Below, one piece after another: positions 26,868 to 34,041 of a DNA stretch of 39,722 nt. Under the pieces are notes generated by a model. It ran no database searches and had not been told where the DNA came from. It saw only the letters and a program-made list of their open reading frames with translations. Each line of letters starts with the position of its first letter. The stretch's first letter is position 1. The translations under genes and the position numbers were made by a program. Origin of the DNA: a virus (lineage: Duplodnaviria > Heunggongvirae > Uroviricota > Caudoviricetes); the IMG/VR virus record IMGVR_UViG_2541047869_000003, positions 1-39,722 of that record. One strand, given 5' to 3'.

Positions 26868-28244
26868 TCATACGTCAGCCCCTTGTGCATATCGTCTGCC
26901 ACGCGCAGCAGGTGCATTTGATACTGTGCAAATCTGTCTGGCTTCGTCCTGGTCACATGCAACAAAGTGTCCGTTGCAGAACCGCTGGTAAACCGTACCA
27001 AGCGAGCCAAAACGGTTTTTCGTCACAATGATTTCAGCAAATGGCGCGGCGCTACTGTTCTCGTCATATACCGCTTCCCGATAGAGCATGATGATTGAGT
27101 CTGCGTCCTGTTCAATGCTTCCAGAATCACGCAAATCTGCGTTTGTCGGGCGTTTGTTTGGTCGCTTCTCAACATCGCGCGAAAGCTGACTTAGGGAGAT
27201 AACAGGCGTTTTCAGGTCTTTCGCCATCGCTTTTAGACTTCCGGAGATGTGAGCAATTGCGAGGTCGTTGCGATCTGCTTTCGGCTTCTCAATCAGGCCA
27301 AGATAATCCGCCATGATGAGTGACAGGTTTGGATTTTCCTGTTTGTGCCGTTCTGCGATTGAGCGAATTTCTTCGACCGATAACCGCGAGGCATCGACTA
27401 CCCATACATCCAAATCTGCAAGCTGACTCATGCCGTTAGCAACACGCGCCCAGCCTTCGTCATCCATCGATGCAGGATTTCGCAGTACGCTAACCGACAT
27501 CCTCCCGGCGTTGGCAATGCTTCGCTCTGCAATCTGCAATGCGCTCATTTCCATTGAGAAAATCAATACCCCGCGCCGGACGTCAGAACCAGGAATAACT
27601 CGGCTTGCAACGCCTTCGGCAATCTTCAGCGCCAGTTCTGTTTTCCCCATACCAGGACGAGCAGCGATTATCACCAGGTCTTCCGCGTTCATCCCTCCGG
27701 TGATGGCGTCAAGTTCTTCGATTCCGGTCTTCAGGGTATCTGACTCTTCTCCGTTCCTCAGACGCCTGTCAAGCGTGTCAGTGTAGTCAGTGATGATTTC
27801 CCCTAACCGTACCGGTTTAACCTCGTCACGGGGCTTTCTGATGGCTGAGAGACGCTTTACAAGTTCATCCATCGCCTGACTCGATGCGTCGATGGTTCCG
27901 CTCTGAATTGGTTCACGCATTTCATCCATGATTTCCAGCACCAGACGGCGGTGATAGTTATCCGCGACCATTCCGGCATATCCCTTCAGGTTTGCGGCAC
28001 TCGGGCAGTTTTTGCTGGTCATCAGGATTGACGTGAAATGCTCCTCTCCGCACGCCTCGGCAACCATCAGCGCGTCGATTAGGTTTCTGTTTCTCGCCTG
28101 CTTACGGATAACCTCGAAGGCTTTCCGGTAGAGCGGAATTGAAAACGCTTCCGGCTCCAGCGTTGCCAGAACGTCGCTGGCGGTTGGTGTTAATCCACCA
28201 ATCAGCAGGCCACCGATAACGCTCGCTTCGATATCCTGTTTCAT
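26868..28244 (-). CDS. Replicative DNA helicase (DnaB-like, P22 gene 12 position)
   Basis: 458 aa; Walker [16 protein letters not shown], Walker B-like [10 protein letters not shown], RecA-fold C-terminal domain; overlaps the O-like gene by 4 nt. Confidence 0.9.
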
Positions 28245-29062
28245 GCAATCCCCCTGTCTGCAAACTTCCCTTCCCGAACTCCCGTTAACGAATCTTCCCT
28301 CAGCAGGTAATCAAAATCAGCTGTCCAGCCCGTGTCGTTGTCTCCGAAGTAAAACGGCTTGGCCTGATGCACAAACGCCCTGACATACGCTCTGAAACCG
28401 TCCACGTTTGGCGTTTTCAGTTGCGGGATGATTTTCTTCAGGCGGCGTTTGCGTTTCTCGTTGACCGCAACAGCGTGTGGCAGTCTGTCACCGACTTCGG
28501 TGTTGTAAGCGTTCAGGAAGGATTCGTAGTCGATTCGTTCTGCCTTGCGACGTTCAGGTTTAACCTGCCCATCGCCGCCCCCGTTAGGGGGTAAGGGGGT
28601 ATTTGTATTTATTGTCTTTTGTATATTGTCTTTTGTGTTTAGCTGACTTGGCTTATACCCATTAGCCGACTTGGCTAATGTTTTATTAGCTGTTTTAGCT
28701 AATGTTAAGCTGTCATGGCTAATCCACTGAGAAACCACCTTGTTCACTCCGATTTTCACGCCATCAGCAATGAGGAATTTACGCTCAATAAGCTGGCGCT
28801 TGGCAGCGCAAACATGAGTGTGATGAATACCTGTCATGGCTGCTATCTGCGTGTTTGTGAGTCGATCCATCGGCTTATTGAATCCGTATGTCTTGCGCAT
28901 GATAGCGAGCATCACCTTCAACTGCCGGACGGTTAAATCAGCCATCAGCAGACTGTCGGTAATCTCGTTAGCAACGCGCATGAAACCATCTTCGGTATCT
29001 GCCACGCGATGCTCCACGACCTCCAGTTGAGGCCTGTAATCAGCTAACTTAACGACGCCCAT
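28241..29062 (-). CDS. Replication initiator, lambda O-like (P22 gene 18 position)
   Basis: 273 aa; N-terminal [36 protein letters not shown] matches the lambda O iteron-binding domain motif (RQFKVLLAILRKTYGWNKPMD) from memory; origin iterons lie inside the gene. Confidence 0.85.
28600..28722. repeat. Replication origin: four ~17-bp iterons plus adjacent AT-rich region, inside the O-like gene
   Basis: Iterons at ~28639, 28662, 28686 and 28705: TTAGCTGACTTGGCTTA, TTAGCCGACTTGGCTAA, TTAGCTGTTTTAGCTAA, TTAAGCTGTCATGGCTAA. AT-rich block with tandem ATTGTCTTTTGT x2 at ~28604-28640. Order (iterons then AT-rich in the direction of O transcription) matches lambda ori. Confidence 0.6.
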
Positions 29063-29648: not shown

Positions 29649-29876
29649 TTATGCAGCCAGAAGGTTCTTTTTGCTTATTTCAAGCATTTCGCTTGCTTGA
29701 TATTTGCCACCAGAAATCTCTTCGATTTTTGATGCGTATTTAGTTTTCCCAAAAAACTCAGTCTTAGGGAGGAAGCCGTTTTTGAGCCACTTATAGACAG
29801 CCCTTTCGCTAACTCCACAAGCCTTCGCAACTTCAGGGATGCCGACACCTTTAATCGGCTCATCAAGATTTTGCAT
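29649..29876 (-). CDS. cro: Cro-like repressor (HTH)
   Basis: 75 aa, divergent from the repressor gene; HTH segment GIPEVAKACGVSERAVYKWLKNG. Confidence 0.75.
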   Translation of the reverse strand: MQNLDEPIKGVGIPEVAKACGVSERAVYKWLKNGFLPKTEFFGKTKYASKIEEISGGKYQASEMLEISKKNLLAA

Positions 29877-29954: not shown

Positions 29955-30662
29955 ATGGTTCAGAATGAAAAAGTGCGCAAAGAATTCGCCCAGCGGCTAG
30001 CGCAAGCCTGTAAAGAAGCTGGTCTTGATGAACATGGTAGGGGGATGGCCATAGCCCGTGCCCTTTCTCTTTCGTCCAAAGGCGTTAGCAAATGGTTTAA
30101 TGCTGAGTCTTTACCGCGTCAGGAAAAAATGAATGCGCTTGCGAAATTTCTAAACGTTGATGTTGTTTGGCTTCAGCACGGCACTTCGTTAAATGGAGCG
30201 AATGATGAAGATACTCTTTCATTTGTTGGCAAATTAAAAAAAGGGTTAGTGCGCGTGGTTGGTGAGGCAATTCTTGGTGTTGATGGTGCCATCGAGATGA
30301 CCGAAGAGCGCGATGGGTGGCTCAAAATTTATAGCGATGATCCAGATGCCTTTGGTCTTCGTGTGAAAGGAGACAGCATGTGGCCCAGAATAAAATCAGG
30401 AGAATATGTACTCATTGAGCCTAACACCAAAGTATTCCCGGGTGATGAGGTGTTTGTCAGAACCATCGAAGGACACAACATGATCAAGATTCTTGGCTAT
30501 GACAGAGATGGAGAATACCAGTTTACAAGCATCAACCAAGACCACAGACCAATAACGTTGCCTTATCATCAAGTAGCAAAGGTGGAGTATGTGGCTGGTA
30601 TTCTGAAGCAGTCCCGCCATCTGGATGACATCGAGGCAAGGGAGTGGCTGAAAAGTTCGTGA
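29955..30662 (+). CDS. cI: Prophage repressor, CI/C2-type (HTH plus LexA-like S24 autopeptidase domain)
   Basis: 235 aa; N-terminal HTH; C-terminal domain with Ala-Gly cleavage region and GDSMWP catalytic Ser motif plus downstream Lys. Confidence 0.9.
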   Translation: MVQNEKVRKEFAQRLAQACKEAGLDEHGRGMAIARALSLSSKGVSKWFNAESLPRQEKMNALAKFLNVDVVWLQHGTSLNGANDEDTLSFVGKLKKGLVRVVGEAILGVDGAIEMTEERDGWLKIYSDDPDAFGLRVKGDSMWPRIKSGEYVLIEPNTKVFPGDEVFVRTIEGHNMIKILGYDRDGEYQFTSINQDHRPITLPYHQVAKVEYVAGILKQSRHLDDIEAREWLKSS

Positions 30663-30719
30663 CTTCATCGTCACATAGCTGGTAACCAATGGCCTGAAGA
30701 GACGTTTGGATGATGAAAG

Positions 30720-30745
30720 GTCGCACAGAAGTGCGGCCTTTTTTA
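30720..30745 (+). terminator. Intrinsic terminator after the repressor gene
   Basis: 8-bp stem GGTCGCAC / GTGCGGCC (one G-U), AGAA loop, T6 tail. Confidence 0.7.
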
Positions 30746-30773
30746 TTGGTAGTGATCCACACATTGTGCTAAC

Positions 30774-30958
30774 GCATTAATTAGCATTAATATTTAGCTT
30801 AATCACAGAATAGCTAAAAATATTTTAGCGATAAATATATACATATCAATGAGATAAATAAAAATGATGCATTTTGTAGCTAATTGATGATTTAGCTACC
30901 ATTGCCCTGCTTATTTGAAATAAGCTATCATCACCATAACCAAGCATATGGGGGATTT
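30774..30958 (+). promoter_or_regulatory. AT-rich putative promoter/regulatory region of the cI-N cassette gene
   Basis: Perfect 8-bp inverted repeat GTAGCTAA-N8-TTAGCTAC (30876-30899), tandem GCATTAAT-like repeats (30774-30810), imperfect palindrome ATAGCTAAAAATATTTTAGCGAT; candidate sigma-70 elements TTGCCC-18-TATCAT (about 30902-30931); Shine-Dalgarno GGGGGA before the ATG. Confidence 0.4.
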
Positions 30959-31894
30959 ATGGATACTAAAAAACGAGCTCAAAAAGCAGCAGCAATGTCA
31001 GCAATCGTTAGATCAGCTCCAAAGCCAACTCACACAGGATTAATGGCGACAGGTGTTTCTTGTGCTGTTTTGCCTGATGGTCGCAGAGTGGTTTCAATGC
31101 AAGGTGCAAATGGATTGGCAGAAACATTCGGTGTATCTGTTGGCTCAAAAATGCCAAGATGGGTACCAAATGGGAAGCCAGGTCAATTACCATATGTTCT
31201 CCAAGCAAATGAGCTTCAGCCATATATTTCTGATGAACTAAGAGAAGCGCTAGCAGAACCAATTGTATATAAAAATACATCAGGTGCAGGTGTCGCTTAT
31301 GGCATTGACGTTACTATGCTACCAGCGCTTTGCGAGGCATGGACAGATGCTGAGAGGGATGGAGCCCTACGACAAAAGCATCACTTGAATACAGCTGCAA
31401 AAGCCAAAGCGCTCTATAAAGCTCTAGCTAGAGTTGGCGCCGTTGCGCTCGTTGATGAAGCGACTGGATACCAAAAAGAACGAGAGCGCGATGAACTGGC
31501 AAAACTCCTTGAGCAATTCATCGCTAAAGAAATGCGACCATGGGTAAGCACATATCCGCCAGAATTCTTTGAGGAGTTATGTAGACTCAGAGGAGTCCCA
31601 TTCAAAGCAAACATGCGGAGACCGCAATACTTTGGTCATCTTGTGAATAACATAACTTATGACCGCATGGCACCAGAGCTAAGAAATGCGCTAAAGGAAG
31701 AAAGAGCAAAAGCAAAAAAGGCAGGTGCAAAAATGCATCAGTTTCTATCAGAGGGAACTGGATATGGTCTTCTTCAAAAGAGACTTACAGGGGTAACAAC
31801 ACTCATGCAAGCAAGCGATACTTATGAAGATTTCATCCAATTGCTTGATAAGGTACACCCTCTACTAACCGTAGAAGATATTGACGCAGAATAA
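30959..31894 (+). CDS. Uncharacterized 311-aa protein in the cI-N accessory slot (lambda rexAB position)
   Basis: Start taken at MDTKKRAQ (good Shine-Dalgarno), not at the upstream in-frame Met of the ORF track. Lower GC by eye and AGA/TTA codons; flanked by intrinsic terminators. No confident family assignment from memory (possibly P63C-like, unverified). Confidence 0.6.
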   Translation: MDTKKRAQKAAAMSAIVRSAPKPTHTGLMATGVSCAVLPDGRRVVSMQGANGLAETFGVSVGSKMPRWVPNGKPGQLPYVLQANELQPYISDELREALAEPIVYKNTSGAGVAYGIDVTMLPALCEAWTDAERDGALRQKHHLNTAAKAKALYKALARVGAVALVDEATGYQKERERDELAKLLEQFIAKEMRPWVSTYPPEFFEELCRLRGVPFKANMRRPQYFGHLVNNITYDRMAPELRNALKEERAKAKKAGAKMHQFLSEGTGYGLLQKRLTGVTTLMQASDTYEDFIQLLDKVHPLLTVEDIDAE

Positions 31895-31903
31895 CTTTAT
31901 TGC

Positions 31904-31929
31904 CCCGGCCTCAGCGCCGGGTTTTCTTT
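31904..31929 (+). terminator. Intrinsic terminator after the cassette gene
   Basis: Stem CCCGGC / GCCGGG, 6-nt loop, followed by TTTTCTTT. Confidence 0.7.
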
Positions 31930-32096
31930 GCCTCACGATCGCCCTCCCATATTTAATAGCCGCAAATGTGGTAAACCGCGAACCAACTCACCAGCAATAA
32001 CCACTCCAACTACAGACCAATCTGCAGCATTTACAAAAATAAATTTCCTTATATATCAAAATCATATCTCGCAGCATTAATAAATCACAAAAATTT

Positions 32097-32135
32097 CGTA
32101 CCAATAGTTCTTGATAATGTCGAACTATTGGTTCA
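32097..32135. promoter_or_regulatory. OL operators overlapping putative PL
   Basis: CGTACcaataGTTCT (32097-32111) and CGAACtattgGTTCA (32121-32135) share half-sites with the OR sites; the two contain an 11-bp perfect inverted repeat ACCAATAGTTC / GAACTATTGGT. Candidate PL: TTGATA-17-CATTAT. Confidence 0.45.
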
Positions 32136-32185
32136 TTATTGTCACATCAGCAGGACGCTGGAAGCCAAACGGAAAAGATTGGCAG

Positions 32186-32219
32186 GCTCTTTAACTTCGA
32201 TGGGGCGCTGACAAAGCGC
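32186..32219 (+). promoter_or_regulatory. nutL (boxA + boxB)
   Basis: boxA GCTCTTTAA (32186-32194) then boxB hairpin GCGCT-GACAA-AGCGC (32205-32219), matching the P22-type boxB with GACAA loop as I recall it; ~120 nt upstream of N. Confidence 0.65.
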
Positions 32220-32338
32220 AAACAGATACCAAACGAGATGGGTTTGGCGGTGATGTGAATTGCAGCTGCAACGACAGCAACCAGAAGATCAGCATCTGGC
32301 GCATCACCACCAAAGCCATTTCACATGAGGGAAACATC

Positions 32339-32647
32339 ATGACGGTAATCGTGTACGGAAAATCAACATTCGCAGGAAATGCCAAAACTCGCCGTCATGA
32401 GCGGCGCAGAAAACTGGCTATCGAGCGTGATTCCATCTGCAACATCATCGATTCGATCTTCGGAACAGACAGCGAGGAACCAGTTCAGAAAGGCACGAGA
32501 AAGCGTTTAAGCCTTTCTGAAAAAGCAATATCACTCGGCAACATTCGTAACCAAAATACCGACGAATGCAGTGGAAGTATTTGCCTGCCAAACGTAGCCA
32601 TTTACGCGGCAGGCTACCGGAAATCCAAACAACTGACAGCGAGGTAA
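32339..32647 (+). CDS. N: Antiterminator N (P22 gene 24-type)
   Basis: 102 aa from the internal Met; arginine-rich RNA-binding motif GNAKTRRHERRRKLAIER near the N-terminus; Shine-Dalgarno GAGGGA. Confidence 0.85.
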   Translation: MTVIVYGKSTFAGNAKTRRHERRRKLAIERDSICNIIDSIFGTDSEEPVQKGTRKRLSLSEKAISLGNIRNQNTDECSGSICLPNVAIYAAGYRKSKQLTAR

Positions 32648-32668: not shown

Positions 32669-33208
32669 CTAAATTAGCTCATCAGCTTTACCAGCAAAGC
32701 GCATATAACACTCATGGAACCAGACGTCAGGTATAACAAATTTCTCTTTACCTGACGCGCTGTAAGTCACACCTGAGCGATGGAGAAGACCTTTTCTCAT
32801 AAGAGATAAAGCGACCGGATCGCCGTGCTTAAGTACGATTTTGTTATTTGCCATAACAGCAAATGCTAAAACCTCTTTTTCCTGAATACTCAGAGAATTG
32901 AACAGGCGCTCAGTCTCCACAATTACTTTAGCCTCATCTCTCTTACTGAGATATTTTTTATATCTGTCTGAAGATGCCAGAAATATAAACTCCATCACCC
33001 TGTTCAGAACATAACTGATACACAAAAGCATTGCGTAATACATCCAGTGATCTGGAAGTATTTCAGGATTCCTTATATCTACCCACTCTTTAATTGATGC
33101 TGGGGTGATTATTATCAAGGCAATTAAAATAATAAGCATATGAATTAACTGTTGTAGCGTAAGACCACGCAGGAAGAAACGTAATAGTTCCTGCCACCAG
33201 TTACTCAT
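32669..33208 (-). CDS. sieB: Superinfection exclusion protein B (SieB-like membrane protein)
   Basis: 179 aa; N-terminal transmembrane helices (LIHMLIILIALIIITP, YYAMLLCISYVL); next to N, opposite orientation to PL transcription, as for sieB in P22 and lambda. Confidence 0.7.
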   Translation of the reverse strand: MSNWWQELLRFFLRGLTLQQLIHMLIILIALIIITPASIKEWVDIRNPEILPDHWMYYAMLLCISYVLNRVMEFIFLASSDRYKKYLSKRDEAKVIVETERLFNSLSIQEKEVLAFAVMANNKIVLKHGDPVALSLMRKGLLHRSGVTYSASGKEKFVIPDVWFHECYMRFAGKADELI

Positions 33209-33417: not shown

Positions 33418-34041
33418 ATGTCATCAATCCGCTTAACTACGAGAATGAAAGAGGAAATCGCTCGTAACGCTTTAATTAAGTCTGGGGTTTTCACTGAACT
33501 TGAAGAAGTAACAAAGTTAAAGAACCAGCTTGCACTTGACGCCAGAGTTATTGCGTTTGGCGGTAAAAAGAAAACTGAGGAAGTGGATCAGTTATCATCC
33601 AAGTTGGTAGCTATAAGTGAAGAACTTGAAAAGATGGGATGTTCATTTTACTCATACGATGTTCGTTCTACTTCAATTTATCTGACTGTATCTGGCAGAA
33701 GGGTTGGATGGCATTCATATGGGAAAGACGGCAACGGCGAAGATATATTGCTCCCTACTCCAACCAAATATAAATGCATGTTTGACGCAGAACACGAAAT
33801 AACAAAAAGGTTTGATGAAATCTGCGCATTGCAACAAAACCTTGAAGCCTTGAAAAAGGATATCGAATCAAATGTATGGGCTGCTTTGAACTCAGTCACA
33901 ACAGTTAAGCGACTTATTGAAGTTTGGCCTGAAAGCAAAGAATTGCTACCAAAAGAAGCAGATAAAGCAAGTACAGCACTTCCTGCTTTACGGGTAGAAG
34001 ATTTGAATAAGATGATTGGACTTCCTTCCGAGGCCGCATAG
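33418..34041 (+). CDS. Hypothetical protein (207 aa) between sieB and cIII
   Basis: Start taken at MSSIRLTTRMKEEIARNA; AT-rich; no family recognised. Confidence 0.5.
   Translation: MSSIRLTTRMKEEIARNALIKSGVFTELEEVTKLKNQLALDARVIAFGGKKKTEEVDQLSSKLVAISEELEKMGCSFYSYDVRSTSIYLTVSGRRVGWHSYGKDGNGEDILLPTPTKYKCMFDAEHEITKRFDEICALQQNLEALKKDIESNVWAALNSVTTVKRLIEVWPESKELLPKEADKASTALPALRVEDLNKMIGLPSEAA

Follow-up and report, generated by a model that had tools for sequence, protein, structure and literature searches.

What does a temperate phage keep in the interval between its repressor gene and its left operator, where lambda carries rexAB, and what is that gene for? The question is raised by a 39,722-nucleotide (nt) stretch of a Caudoviricetes virus (IMG/VR record IMGVR_UViG_2541047869_000003, positions 1 to 39,722; referred to here as the window). 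The window is a P22/lambda-type mosaic prophage in which the early-left operon reads rightwards and the interval from cI to N holds one gene of the P63C family. An account made from the DNA letters alone, which we call the sequence-only reading, had placed a 311-residue open reading frame (ORF) at 30959-31894 between cI and N, and had described the interval as the equivalent of the rexAB slot, occupied by an insulated single-gene cassette. The ORF is present with the neighbors as described, and our comparison with other prophages bears out the cassette and identifies the slot as a hotspot of variable cargo, with a conserved sigma-70-type promoter in front of this particular gene. We conclude that the cassette is, almost beyond doubt, an autonomous and horizontally exchanged accessory ('moron') unit lying between the cI terminator and OL/PL. 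We also find that a dyad repeat covering the gene's promoter region is a general trait of P63C genes, and that the class of dyad (here TAGCTAA-N6-TTAGCTA) follows the protein subfamily and neither the cI allele nor the host.

The limits of the exchanged segment are visible in blastn alignments with related prophages. The TL20 prophage is 98.7% identical to the window through cro-cI up to position 30714 and 99% identical from 31904 through OL/PL, and between these points it carries a different insert of 628 bp that encodes a 126-residue protein of no family (L018, 2938-3318). The prophage of an ST131 strain has only 30686-31940 in common with the window and differs from it in both cI and N. Strains A41 and 2013C-3342 share only 30687-30747 and 31904-31944 with the window, and their slot holds a 347-residue ParA-like/AAA_31 ATPase (3768-4814 of L016 and L017), while in H-19B the same slot ends enclose a HigB toxin and a helix-turn-helix (HTH) antitoxin (L004, 3198-3901). 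None of these alternative cargo genes gave a convincing PADLOC match. From the breakpoints, the cargo-specific DNA is 30748-31903. The blocks on either side of it each match hundreds of E. coli records; the right-hand block lies beside other cargo in TL20, A41, H-19B and SPN9CC, and the hairpin sequence of the left-hand block accompanies P63C cassettes in Cedecea and Enterobacter and also stands 5′ of the P63C gene of SPN9CC. Since both terminator blocks recur around different cargo, they are the conserved junctions of a slot whose cargo varies.

Among 5,426 complete E. coli genomes, 814 match one or both of the ~45-nt query ends and two carry the gene, both of them ST131 O25b:H4 with DNA that is 99.7% identical. 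A DNA-level search of the phage collection did not return the gene. At least six cI alleles, in six genera, stand before the same cassette, with products of 235, 237, 217, 215, 237 and 212 residues in E. coli, Cedecea and Enterobacter-type prophages, and in relatives with cI of 212, 215, 217 and 237 residues the cassette adjoins unrelated replication modules. The order cI-P63C-N is found in the window, in L003, L005-7 and L009-11, and in SPN9CC. An exception is an Enterobacter prophage (L008, 5555-9433) in which the cassette, complete with terminator and dyad, lies outside the immunity region, in a tail-proximal accessory island beside Bro-N, RexB, RexA and DinI genes. Two features expected of a moron are found here: at the level of sequence, the cassette has a promoter and terminators of its own, and it is present or absent between near-identical phages and foreign in composition.

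Both terminators had been called strong, a description that fits only the first. The hairpin at 30715-30742, followed by a T run, has a stability of −20.8 kcal/mol (z = −5.65; 0 of 200 shuffled sequences as stable) and is a strong intrinsic-terminator candidate that would end cI transcription. The second, a hairpin at 31904-31921 followed by TTTTCTTT, is canonical in form but modest in strength (−12.4 kcal/mol, z = −1.56, 15 of 200 shuffles as stable). The foreign look of the gene holds up in most respects. The GC content of the ORF is 0.44 against 0.47 for the window; its GC content at third codon positions (GC3), 0.293, is the lowest of the genes sampled, compared with 0.52-0.55 for the coat, portal and terminase genes; and 12 of its 20 arginine codons are AGA or AGG and only one of its 32 leucine codons is CTG. 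The TTA codons that had contributed to the impression are unremarkable, at three of the 32.

The sequence-only reading had also remarked on an AT-rich, palindromic region upstream of the gene, and this region proves to be the most informative part of the cassette. Its 211 bp have a GC content of 0.303 and contain three sites of the form GCTAA-N7/8-TTAGC within 30768-30896 (starting at 30768, 30813 and 30879), against 0.07 expected in the whole window. The region is not common to TL20 despite the same cro-cI, and it is kept with its motifs in all close cassettes. When the upstream regions of four genera are aligned (77% mean identity), the invariant elements are the terminator and the proximal dyad, (A)GCTAA-N8-TTAGCT(A), with the promoter just after it. 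A perfect proximal GCTAA-N8-TTAGC is found in the window, in L003, L005 and L008-L012, and in most viral-contig loci of class A, to which the window protein belongs (L021-L023, L028, L029), and the exact pattern was not found in class A loci L024-L026. Cassettes whose proteins are as little as 62% identical still have the proximal dyad unchanged, and the position aligned with the distal dyad retains AGCTA-type half-sites in other genera.

The promoter that follows the dyad is also preserved, its −35 and −10 hexamers aligning with TTGACA and TATATT in Cedecea and with TTGCTG and TAAATT in Enterobacter. In a Providencia cassette (L012), a perfect GCTAA-N8-TTAGC occupies the spacer between TTGACG and TAGAAT. 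A longer reading frame of 330 residues, beginning at TTG 30902, was dropped because that start lies inside the promoter and has no conserved counterpart in relatives. The best-scoring promoter-like site of the region is on the minus strand (30822-30849, TTGATA-16-TAAAAT, 10 of 12 matches) and faces cI; in DNA so rich in AT, the match may be fortuitous. As to the factor that would recognize the dyads, control by LexA, cI or a host factor was considered and rejected. Because the same dyad stands behind six cI alleles and dyad classes differ within one host genus, the dyad serves as a site for neither cI nor a host factor. Most simply read, the dyads are bound by the P63C protein itself.

The protein had been described as one that could not be placed in a characterized family. 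This remains correct insofar as P63C has no characterized function, but the family is a named one, and the match to it is clear (Pfam PF10546, 81.6 bits against a cut-off of 26.1, E = 6.6e-23, residues 183-269, positions 31505-31765). The protein also aligns collinearly over its full length with PHROG 2384, annotated as of 'unknown function' (residues 4-306 with 22-328 of the 338-position profile, E = 6e-106). An identical protein is on record (P0001), and relatives at 80-89% identity are found in Cedecea, Enterobacter, Morganella, Yersinia, Pantoea, Klebsiella and Serratia. All 42 aligned relatives match Pfam P63C as well, a word-indexed search returned 1,568 relatives, all with PF10546 only, and an exhaustive profile search returned 5,244 clusters at 50% identity with E ≤ 1e-3, of which 3,230 have E ≤ 1e-10. 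The best 150 cluster representatives are almost all 300-370 residues long and aligned end to end. A search of NCBIfam with the protein returned nothing, and comparison with solved structures gave no fold match. A likeness to DrmE_C of the DISARM system was set aside as too weak, being seen in three of the 42 members at 19.8 bits against a cut-off of 27; the best sub-threshold match (E = 6.8e-4) covers residues 248-318 of P0065, equivalent to about 222-292 of the window protein. P63C reportedly had its first description, by Iyer, Koonin and Aravind in 2002, as one of the domain-shuffled 'transcription regulators of DNA viruses'.

An AlphaFold2 model built from 42 sequences consists of an N-terminal alpha/beta domain and an all-helical C-terminal domain. 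In an alignment that spans phages of Proteobacteria, Streptococcus and Gordonia (A5), residues A163, L164, D166, E167, A168, T169 and G170 are invariant, and D166-G170 are invariant in alignment A1 also. In the N-terminal CAVLxDGxR hairpin, V37, L38 and R43 are invariant across phyla, as further along the chain are R209, P222, G226 and Y234, and the window protein has every one of the family-invariant residues. Other P63C proteins (933W L0095, SPN9CC gp19, Mx8 p63 and Gordonia Barco gp34) are built on the same two domains over their full length, have the invariant ALVDEATG, R, P..G and Y motifs and are each encoded behind a dyad repeat. They differ from the window protein in being 30-40% identical to it, in having other dyad classes and, for some, in lying in nin or recombination regions.

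Distant P63C genes have other dyads at the same place, namely TGCACGT..ACGTGCA in the 933W type, Serratia and Chromobacterium, TGCAAGCA..TGCTTGCA in the SPN9CC type, and TAGCATTATGCTA. For 65 distinct P63C genes, the best upstream inverted-repeat score has a median of 8, compared with 6 for 212 control regions from the same loci, and scores of at least 8 are reached by 51% of the P63C upstreams and 13% of the controls (Mann–Whitney p = 1.7e-14), with terminator hairpins adding to both sets. Within 917 kb of loci, half-site clusters of class B (the class of 933W L0095) and class C are almost restricted to the start of the cognate P63C gene. The two protein domains differ in how they relate to the dyads. 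Identity in the N-terminal domain is 0.54 within a dyad class and 0.34 between classes (ratio 1.58), compared with 0.65 and 0.52 in the C-terminal domain (ratio 1.23), and the dyad class is predicted from the nearest neighbor in 32 of 39 cases by the N-terminal domain and in 28 of 39 by the C-terminal domain. The N-terminal domain is the variable part and the one that better tracks dyad class, in a test that is supportive and not conclusive because shared descent confounds it.

A protein with such sites might act on the host. Under this explanation, the gene would encode a transcription factor of lysogenic conversion that binds its dyad at host promoters and alters physiology or virulence, and the position and autonomous promoter of the gene, both typical of conversion morons, its presence in clinical ST131 blood isolates and the sequence-specific DNA binding suggested by the dyads are all in keeping with it. 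The dyad clusters, however, hardly occur outside the gene's own promoter in the 917 kb of loci (host chromosomes were not scanned), and a family that keeps its C-terminal domain in hosts as far apart as Streptococcus and Gordonia is hard to square with host-specific regulons. We consider conversion very improbable.

We regard autoregulatory, sequence-specific DNA binding by the P63C protein as probable on the strength of these dyads. The protein would bind them through its variable N-terminal domain, probably as a dimer. Because one dyad abuts the −35 element and another lies in the −35/−10 spacer, binding would repress the gene's own promoter. Expression in the lysogen would be low and self-limited, and independent of PRM owing to terminator 1, and the effector would be the strongly conserved, helical P63C domain at the C-terminus, in which the ALVDEATG motif and arginine and tyrosine residues are invariant. 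A single autoregulated gene that has spread horizontally across genera, in a slot that in H-19B holds a HigB/antitoxin pair, could also be pictured as a selfish, addiction-like module in which autorepression curbs a toxic effector and the prophage is stabilized. With no second (antitoxin) gene in the cassette and no similarity of the protein to known toxins, and given that autorepression alone gives no post-segregational killing, this picture is scarcely credible.

The surroundings of other P63C genes speak to the phase of the phage life cycle in which the protein would work. The cI-to-N slot of Salmonella phage SPN9CC also holds a P63C gene, of 30% identity. Streptococcus phage Javan515 has the gene between its repressor and its integrase; in the satellite Javan441 it adjoins the integrase, in Gordonia phage Barco it is on the repressor/integrase strand beyond the integrase, and in Burkholderia DC1 it follows the repressor, a nuclease and RecT. 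Across three phyla, the P63C genes of lysogeny modules share the strand of the repressor. We surveyed the two ORFs upstream of P63C at 74 IMG/VR loci, scanning 136 ORFs with Pfam. The commonest families are HTH_3 (19) and Peptidase_S24 (17), followed by Dam (6), Bro-N (6) and NinB (5), with KilA-N (2), Rha (2), P22_AR_C (2) and AntA (1) being rarer. From these counts and from the individual phages, the association of the family with lysogeny modules is strong but not exclusive.

That P63C genes adjoin Bro-N, KilA-N, Rha, P22_AR_C and AntA genes argues, together with the reported first description of the domain among viral regulators, for a different role, that of a shuffled-domain phage regulator of the KilA, Bro, Rha and Ant class, which would tune induction or cross-talk between prophages and stay autorepressed until a signal arrives. 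The cassettes of L008 and L012 lie beside Arc and P22_AR_N immI-like genes, and tight operator control would fit a dangerous regulator. Regulators of the KilA-N, Bro-N, Ant and Rha type likewise join a beta-rich N-terminal domain to a helical C-terminal one, and the N-terminal pattern 'xVLxDGxR..S..G....LG' resembles theirs, by eye only. We nevertheless find this role unlikely. The conserved part of P63C is the C-terminal domain (52% across subfamilies, and kept across phyla). The targets of antirepressors are hypervariable, yet the same P63C allele stands behind six cI alleles, and there is no LexA or cI operator in control of the gene. Similarity to the Bro-N or Ant families is also missing: a Bro-N or KilA-N identity of the N-terminal domain is unsupported, as Pfam at E ≤ 10 showed no Bro-N, AntA, P22_AR_N, Rha or KilA-N domain in any of the 42 members.

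For an autoregulated DNA-binding protein encoded in this slot, the most likely role would be to shield the lysogen from other phages. The target of the protein would be phage DNA that is entering the cell or being replicated, and the gene's own dyads would let it regulate itself or be recognized as self, in the manner of BstA and aba. A protective role is favored because the slot also holds rexAB, bstA and the HigBA pair, and because the architecture parallels that of BstA. In lambda, rexAB is a pair of genes co-transcribed with cI from PRM. The gene in the window is likewise cargo of the cI-to-OL/PL slot, points in the direction of cI and, by its position, would be a lysogeny-expressed accessory gene. 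Unlike rexAB, it is one unrelated gene, set behind a strong terminator after cI and provided with its own promoter, and Pfam finds only P63C in the window protein and no RexA or RexB domain.

The parallel with the BstA/aba system of Salmonella phage BTP1 extends further. The bstA gene lies downstream of cI, is highly expressed in lysogeny and has its own terminator (Owen et al. 2021, PMC8585504). BstA is built of two domains, the N-terminal one DNA-binding, and each homolog has its own DNA element where the gene begins; this element, aba, is 63 bp long with terminal direct CCCGCC repeats and spans the start codon (PMC8585504). The P63C gene occupies the same slot, directly after a cI-type repressor and before N. 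Like bstA, it is a single gene for about 310 residues with its own terminator, its product has two domains of which the N-terminal is implicated in DNA binding, and subfamily-specific dyads lie at its 5′ end, where they may be the counterpart of aba. Both types of gene alternate in the slot among P22-like phages, with P63C in SPN9CC and bstA in its relative BTP1.

Despite these likenesses, the two systems differ in their C-terminal domains, which are Trp/Pro/His-rich in BstA (PF26567) and helical P63C here, and in their DNA elements, with direct repeats over the start codon in aba and dyads over the promoter here. Moreover, defence is demonstrated for BstA, whereas for the P63C protein it is a candidate role. 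In precomputed annotation, all BstA homologs carry PF26567 and all P63C homologs only PF10546. A BLASTP comparison brings out a common stretch, GVxxxVLxDGxxxxxxxGLAExxGV, and hhalign pairs P63C residues 32-187 with BstA 27-166 weakly (E = 0.0024, probability 12%), without reaching the C-terminal domains. Membership of the BstA family was rejected on the combined outcome, since BLASTP gave no relationship, the PADLOC BstA model no match, and hhalign its 12% over the N-terminal part only. The BstA parallel is, on this comparison, an analogy and not family membership. An anti-phage function of the P63C protein, argued from that analogy, is possible and on balance doubtful. The sequence-only reading had named exclusion, abortive infection and conversion as candidate functions of the gene, and candidates they stay. 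As an explanation of the locus as a whole, we tentatively prefer an autoregulated DNA-binding moron that follows a BstA-like logic and is possibly anti-phage.

The half-site of the promoter dyads recurs at one other place in the window. Clusters of GCTAA/TTAGC half-sites (at least four within 120 nt) are found only in the P63C promoter region and at about 28638-28723, inside the O-type replication gene (28241-29062, minus strand). The latter cluster consists of four iterons of 16-22 nt at spacings of 23, 24 and 20 nt, each of the form TTAGCY-N5-RGCTAA, with an AT-rich repeat beside them at 28608-28637; judged by this layout, it is a lambda-style ori. The same cluster is present in some class A hosts (L009, L022 and L020) and in SPN9CC, whose P63C gene is of class C, and it is missing from other class A hosts. 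Homology between P63C and the O initiator was considered as the source of the common motif, and none was found. The shared half-site may be a chance re-use of the self-complementary hexamer TAGCTA, or the subfamily may recognize a particular type of origin.

With an origin in view, the protein might be a helper in the phage's own lytic DNA metabolism, a site-recognizing factor in replication or recombination whose gene lies by cI only incidentally. The iterons are also present in SPN9CC, which has another dyad class, and absent from several class A hosts, and P63C has no homology to O. The gene is dispensable and rare, being missing from the near-identical TL20 and present in 2 of the 5,426 E. 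coli genomes. Terminators insulate it from both early operons, it points with cI, and the Streptococcus copy lies between repressor and integrase. A helper of this kind is therefore rather improbable. The boldest form of the defence reading is a long shot as well. In it, P63C would be a very large and so far overlooked anti-phage class of prophages and satellites, its roughly 5,200 clusters at 50% identity ranging over Proteobacteria, Firmicutes and Actinobacteria; the variable N-terminal domain would read a dyad and the conserved ALVDEATG domain would act on the bound DNA or the replisome. The promoter dyads would give autoregulation and aba-like self-immunity, and proteins of the window's subfamily, by recognizing the TAGCTA-type half-site that also makes up the ori iterons of a common lambdoid O-type replicon, would block origins. 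For BstA, origin blocking is itself only hypothesized.

Several observations weigh against an autoregulated, BstA-like defence protein. We infer DNA binding only from the co-varying dyads, which could belong to another factor, and the relation between N-terminal domain and dyad class is confounded by shared descent, as stated above. No consistent match to a known DNA-binding family was found for the N-terminal domain in 42 members with Pfam at E ≤ 10, and hhalign gives a probability of only 12% with the N-terminal part of BstA and 1.9% with a Bro-N alignment (A6). The AlphaFold2 model is only moderate, with a predicted local distance difference test score (pLDDT) of 77 and a predicted template-modeling score (pTM) of 0.54, and residues 170-200, beside the invariant motif, have pLDDT values of 50-64. 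A PADLOC scan for membership of a defence family, which the sequence-only reading had suggested, gave no match for the window protein at E ≤ 1, while BTP1 BstA, used as the positive control, scores 412.5 bits on its own model (PDLC02356). Some P63C genes lie in lytic-phase contexts, in the nin region of Stx phages after Dam/NinB or beside RecT, and the Bro-N, KilA-N, Rha and Ant neighbors suit regulation as well as defence. Finally, a literature search found no functional study, experiment or expression data for any P63C protein.

In the slot that holds rexAB in lambda and bstA in BTP1, exchange takes place between two conserved terminator 'linkers' that give the site defined limits, and a family of thousands of phage proteins supplies one of its cargoes. 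The P63C family was already known; the exact structure of the cassette and its junctions and the family-wide rule of cognate dyads are new. From the dyad rule one would expect a protein that binds DNA sequence-specifically, regulates its own gene and has a conserved effector. Were that protein to act in defence, present catalogs of defence systems would gain a widespread single-gene system that they lack, and prophage defence a second, independent case in which self is recognized through a DNA element. ST131 bloodstream isolates and Stx phages are among the carriers, and the gene therefore bears on phage therapy and on competition between prophages. The coordinates of the cassette and its neighbors are collected in Table 1.

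Table 1. Features of the P63C cassette, its product and the adjoining genes, in window coordinates.
Feature	Position	Strand	Remarks
cro-like gene	29649-29876	-	
cI	29955-30662	+	HTH_3 and Peptidase_S24 domains
Left junction block with terminator 1	30686-30747	+	100% common to L016 (other cargo) and the ST131 copy L003
Regulatory region, dyads and promoter	30748-30958	+	30% GC, cargo-specific
Distal dyad GCTAACGCATTAATTAGC (GCTAA-N8-TTAGC)	30768-30785	.	In the ST131 copy too
Middle dyad GCTAAAAATATTTTAGC (N7)	30813-30829	.	Least conserved; one half-site mutated in the ST131 copy
Proximal dyad GTAGCTAA-N8-TTAGCTAC	30876-30899	.	Ends 2 bases 5′ of the −35; putative main operator
Sigma-70-type promoter	30902-30931	+	−35 TTGCCC, 18-nt spacer, −10 TATCAT
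Fourth dyad GCTTATTTGAAATAAGC (GCTTA-N7-TAAGC)	30909-30925		In the −35/−10 spacer
P63C-family coding sequence	30959-31894	+	ATG start, 311 residues, GGGGGA 3 bases 5′ of the ATG
N-terminal alpha/beta domain, residues ~22-135	31022-31363	+	AlphaFold2, pLDDT 82-93 over most; putative DNA-recognition domain
C-terminal all-helical domain, residues ~140-300	31376-31858	+	Conserved; putative effector
ALVDEATG motif codons, residues 163-170	31445-31468	+	Invariant from Proteobacteria to Firmicutes and Actinobacteria
Right junction block with terminator 2	31904-31944	+	95-99% common to the TL20, A41, H-19B and SPN9CC prophages
N	32339-32647	+	N_peptide match, E = 1e-39
SieB superinfection-exclusion homolog	32669-33208	-	Pfam SieB, E = 3e-20

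Beyond the cassette, a perfect 11-nt inverted repeat (ACCAATAGTTC / GAACTATTGGT) at 32100-32139 straddles a promoter-like TTGATA-17-CATTAT and is presumably OL/PL of the window's immunity type; TL20, a prophage with the same cI allele, matches this region at 99% identity. A second inverted repeat, of 21 nt with 86% complementarity and its arms 46 nt apart, lies at 32235-32322 in the leader and start of the N transcript and may be a processing or nut-related structure. No known RNA family came near a gathering score in 30500-32500. The SieB homolog lies directly after N and antisense to the PL operon, the same arrangement as in SPN9CC. Just past it in the early-left operon, a plus-strand gene at 33418-34038 encodes a 207-residue protein that matches Pfam Nmad5 ('nucleotide modification associated domain 5', E = 4e-71) and could be a DNA- or nucleotide-modification accessory gene.

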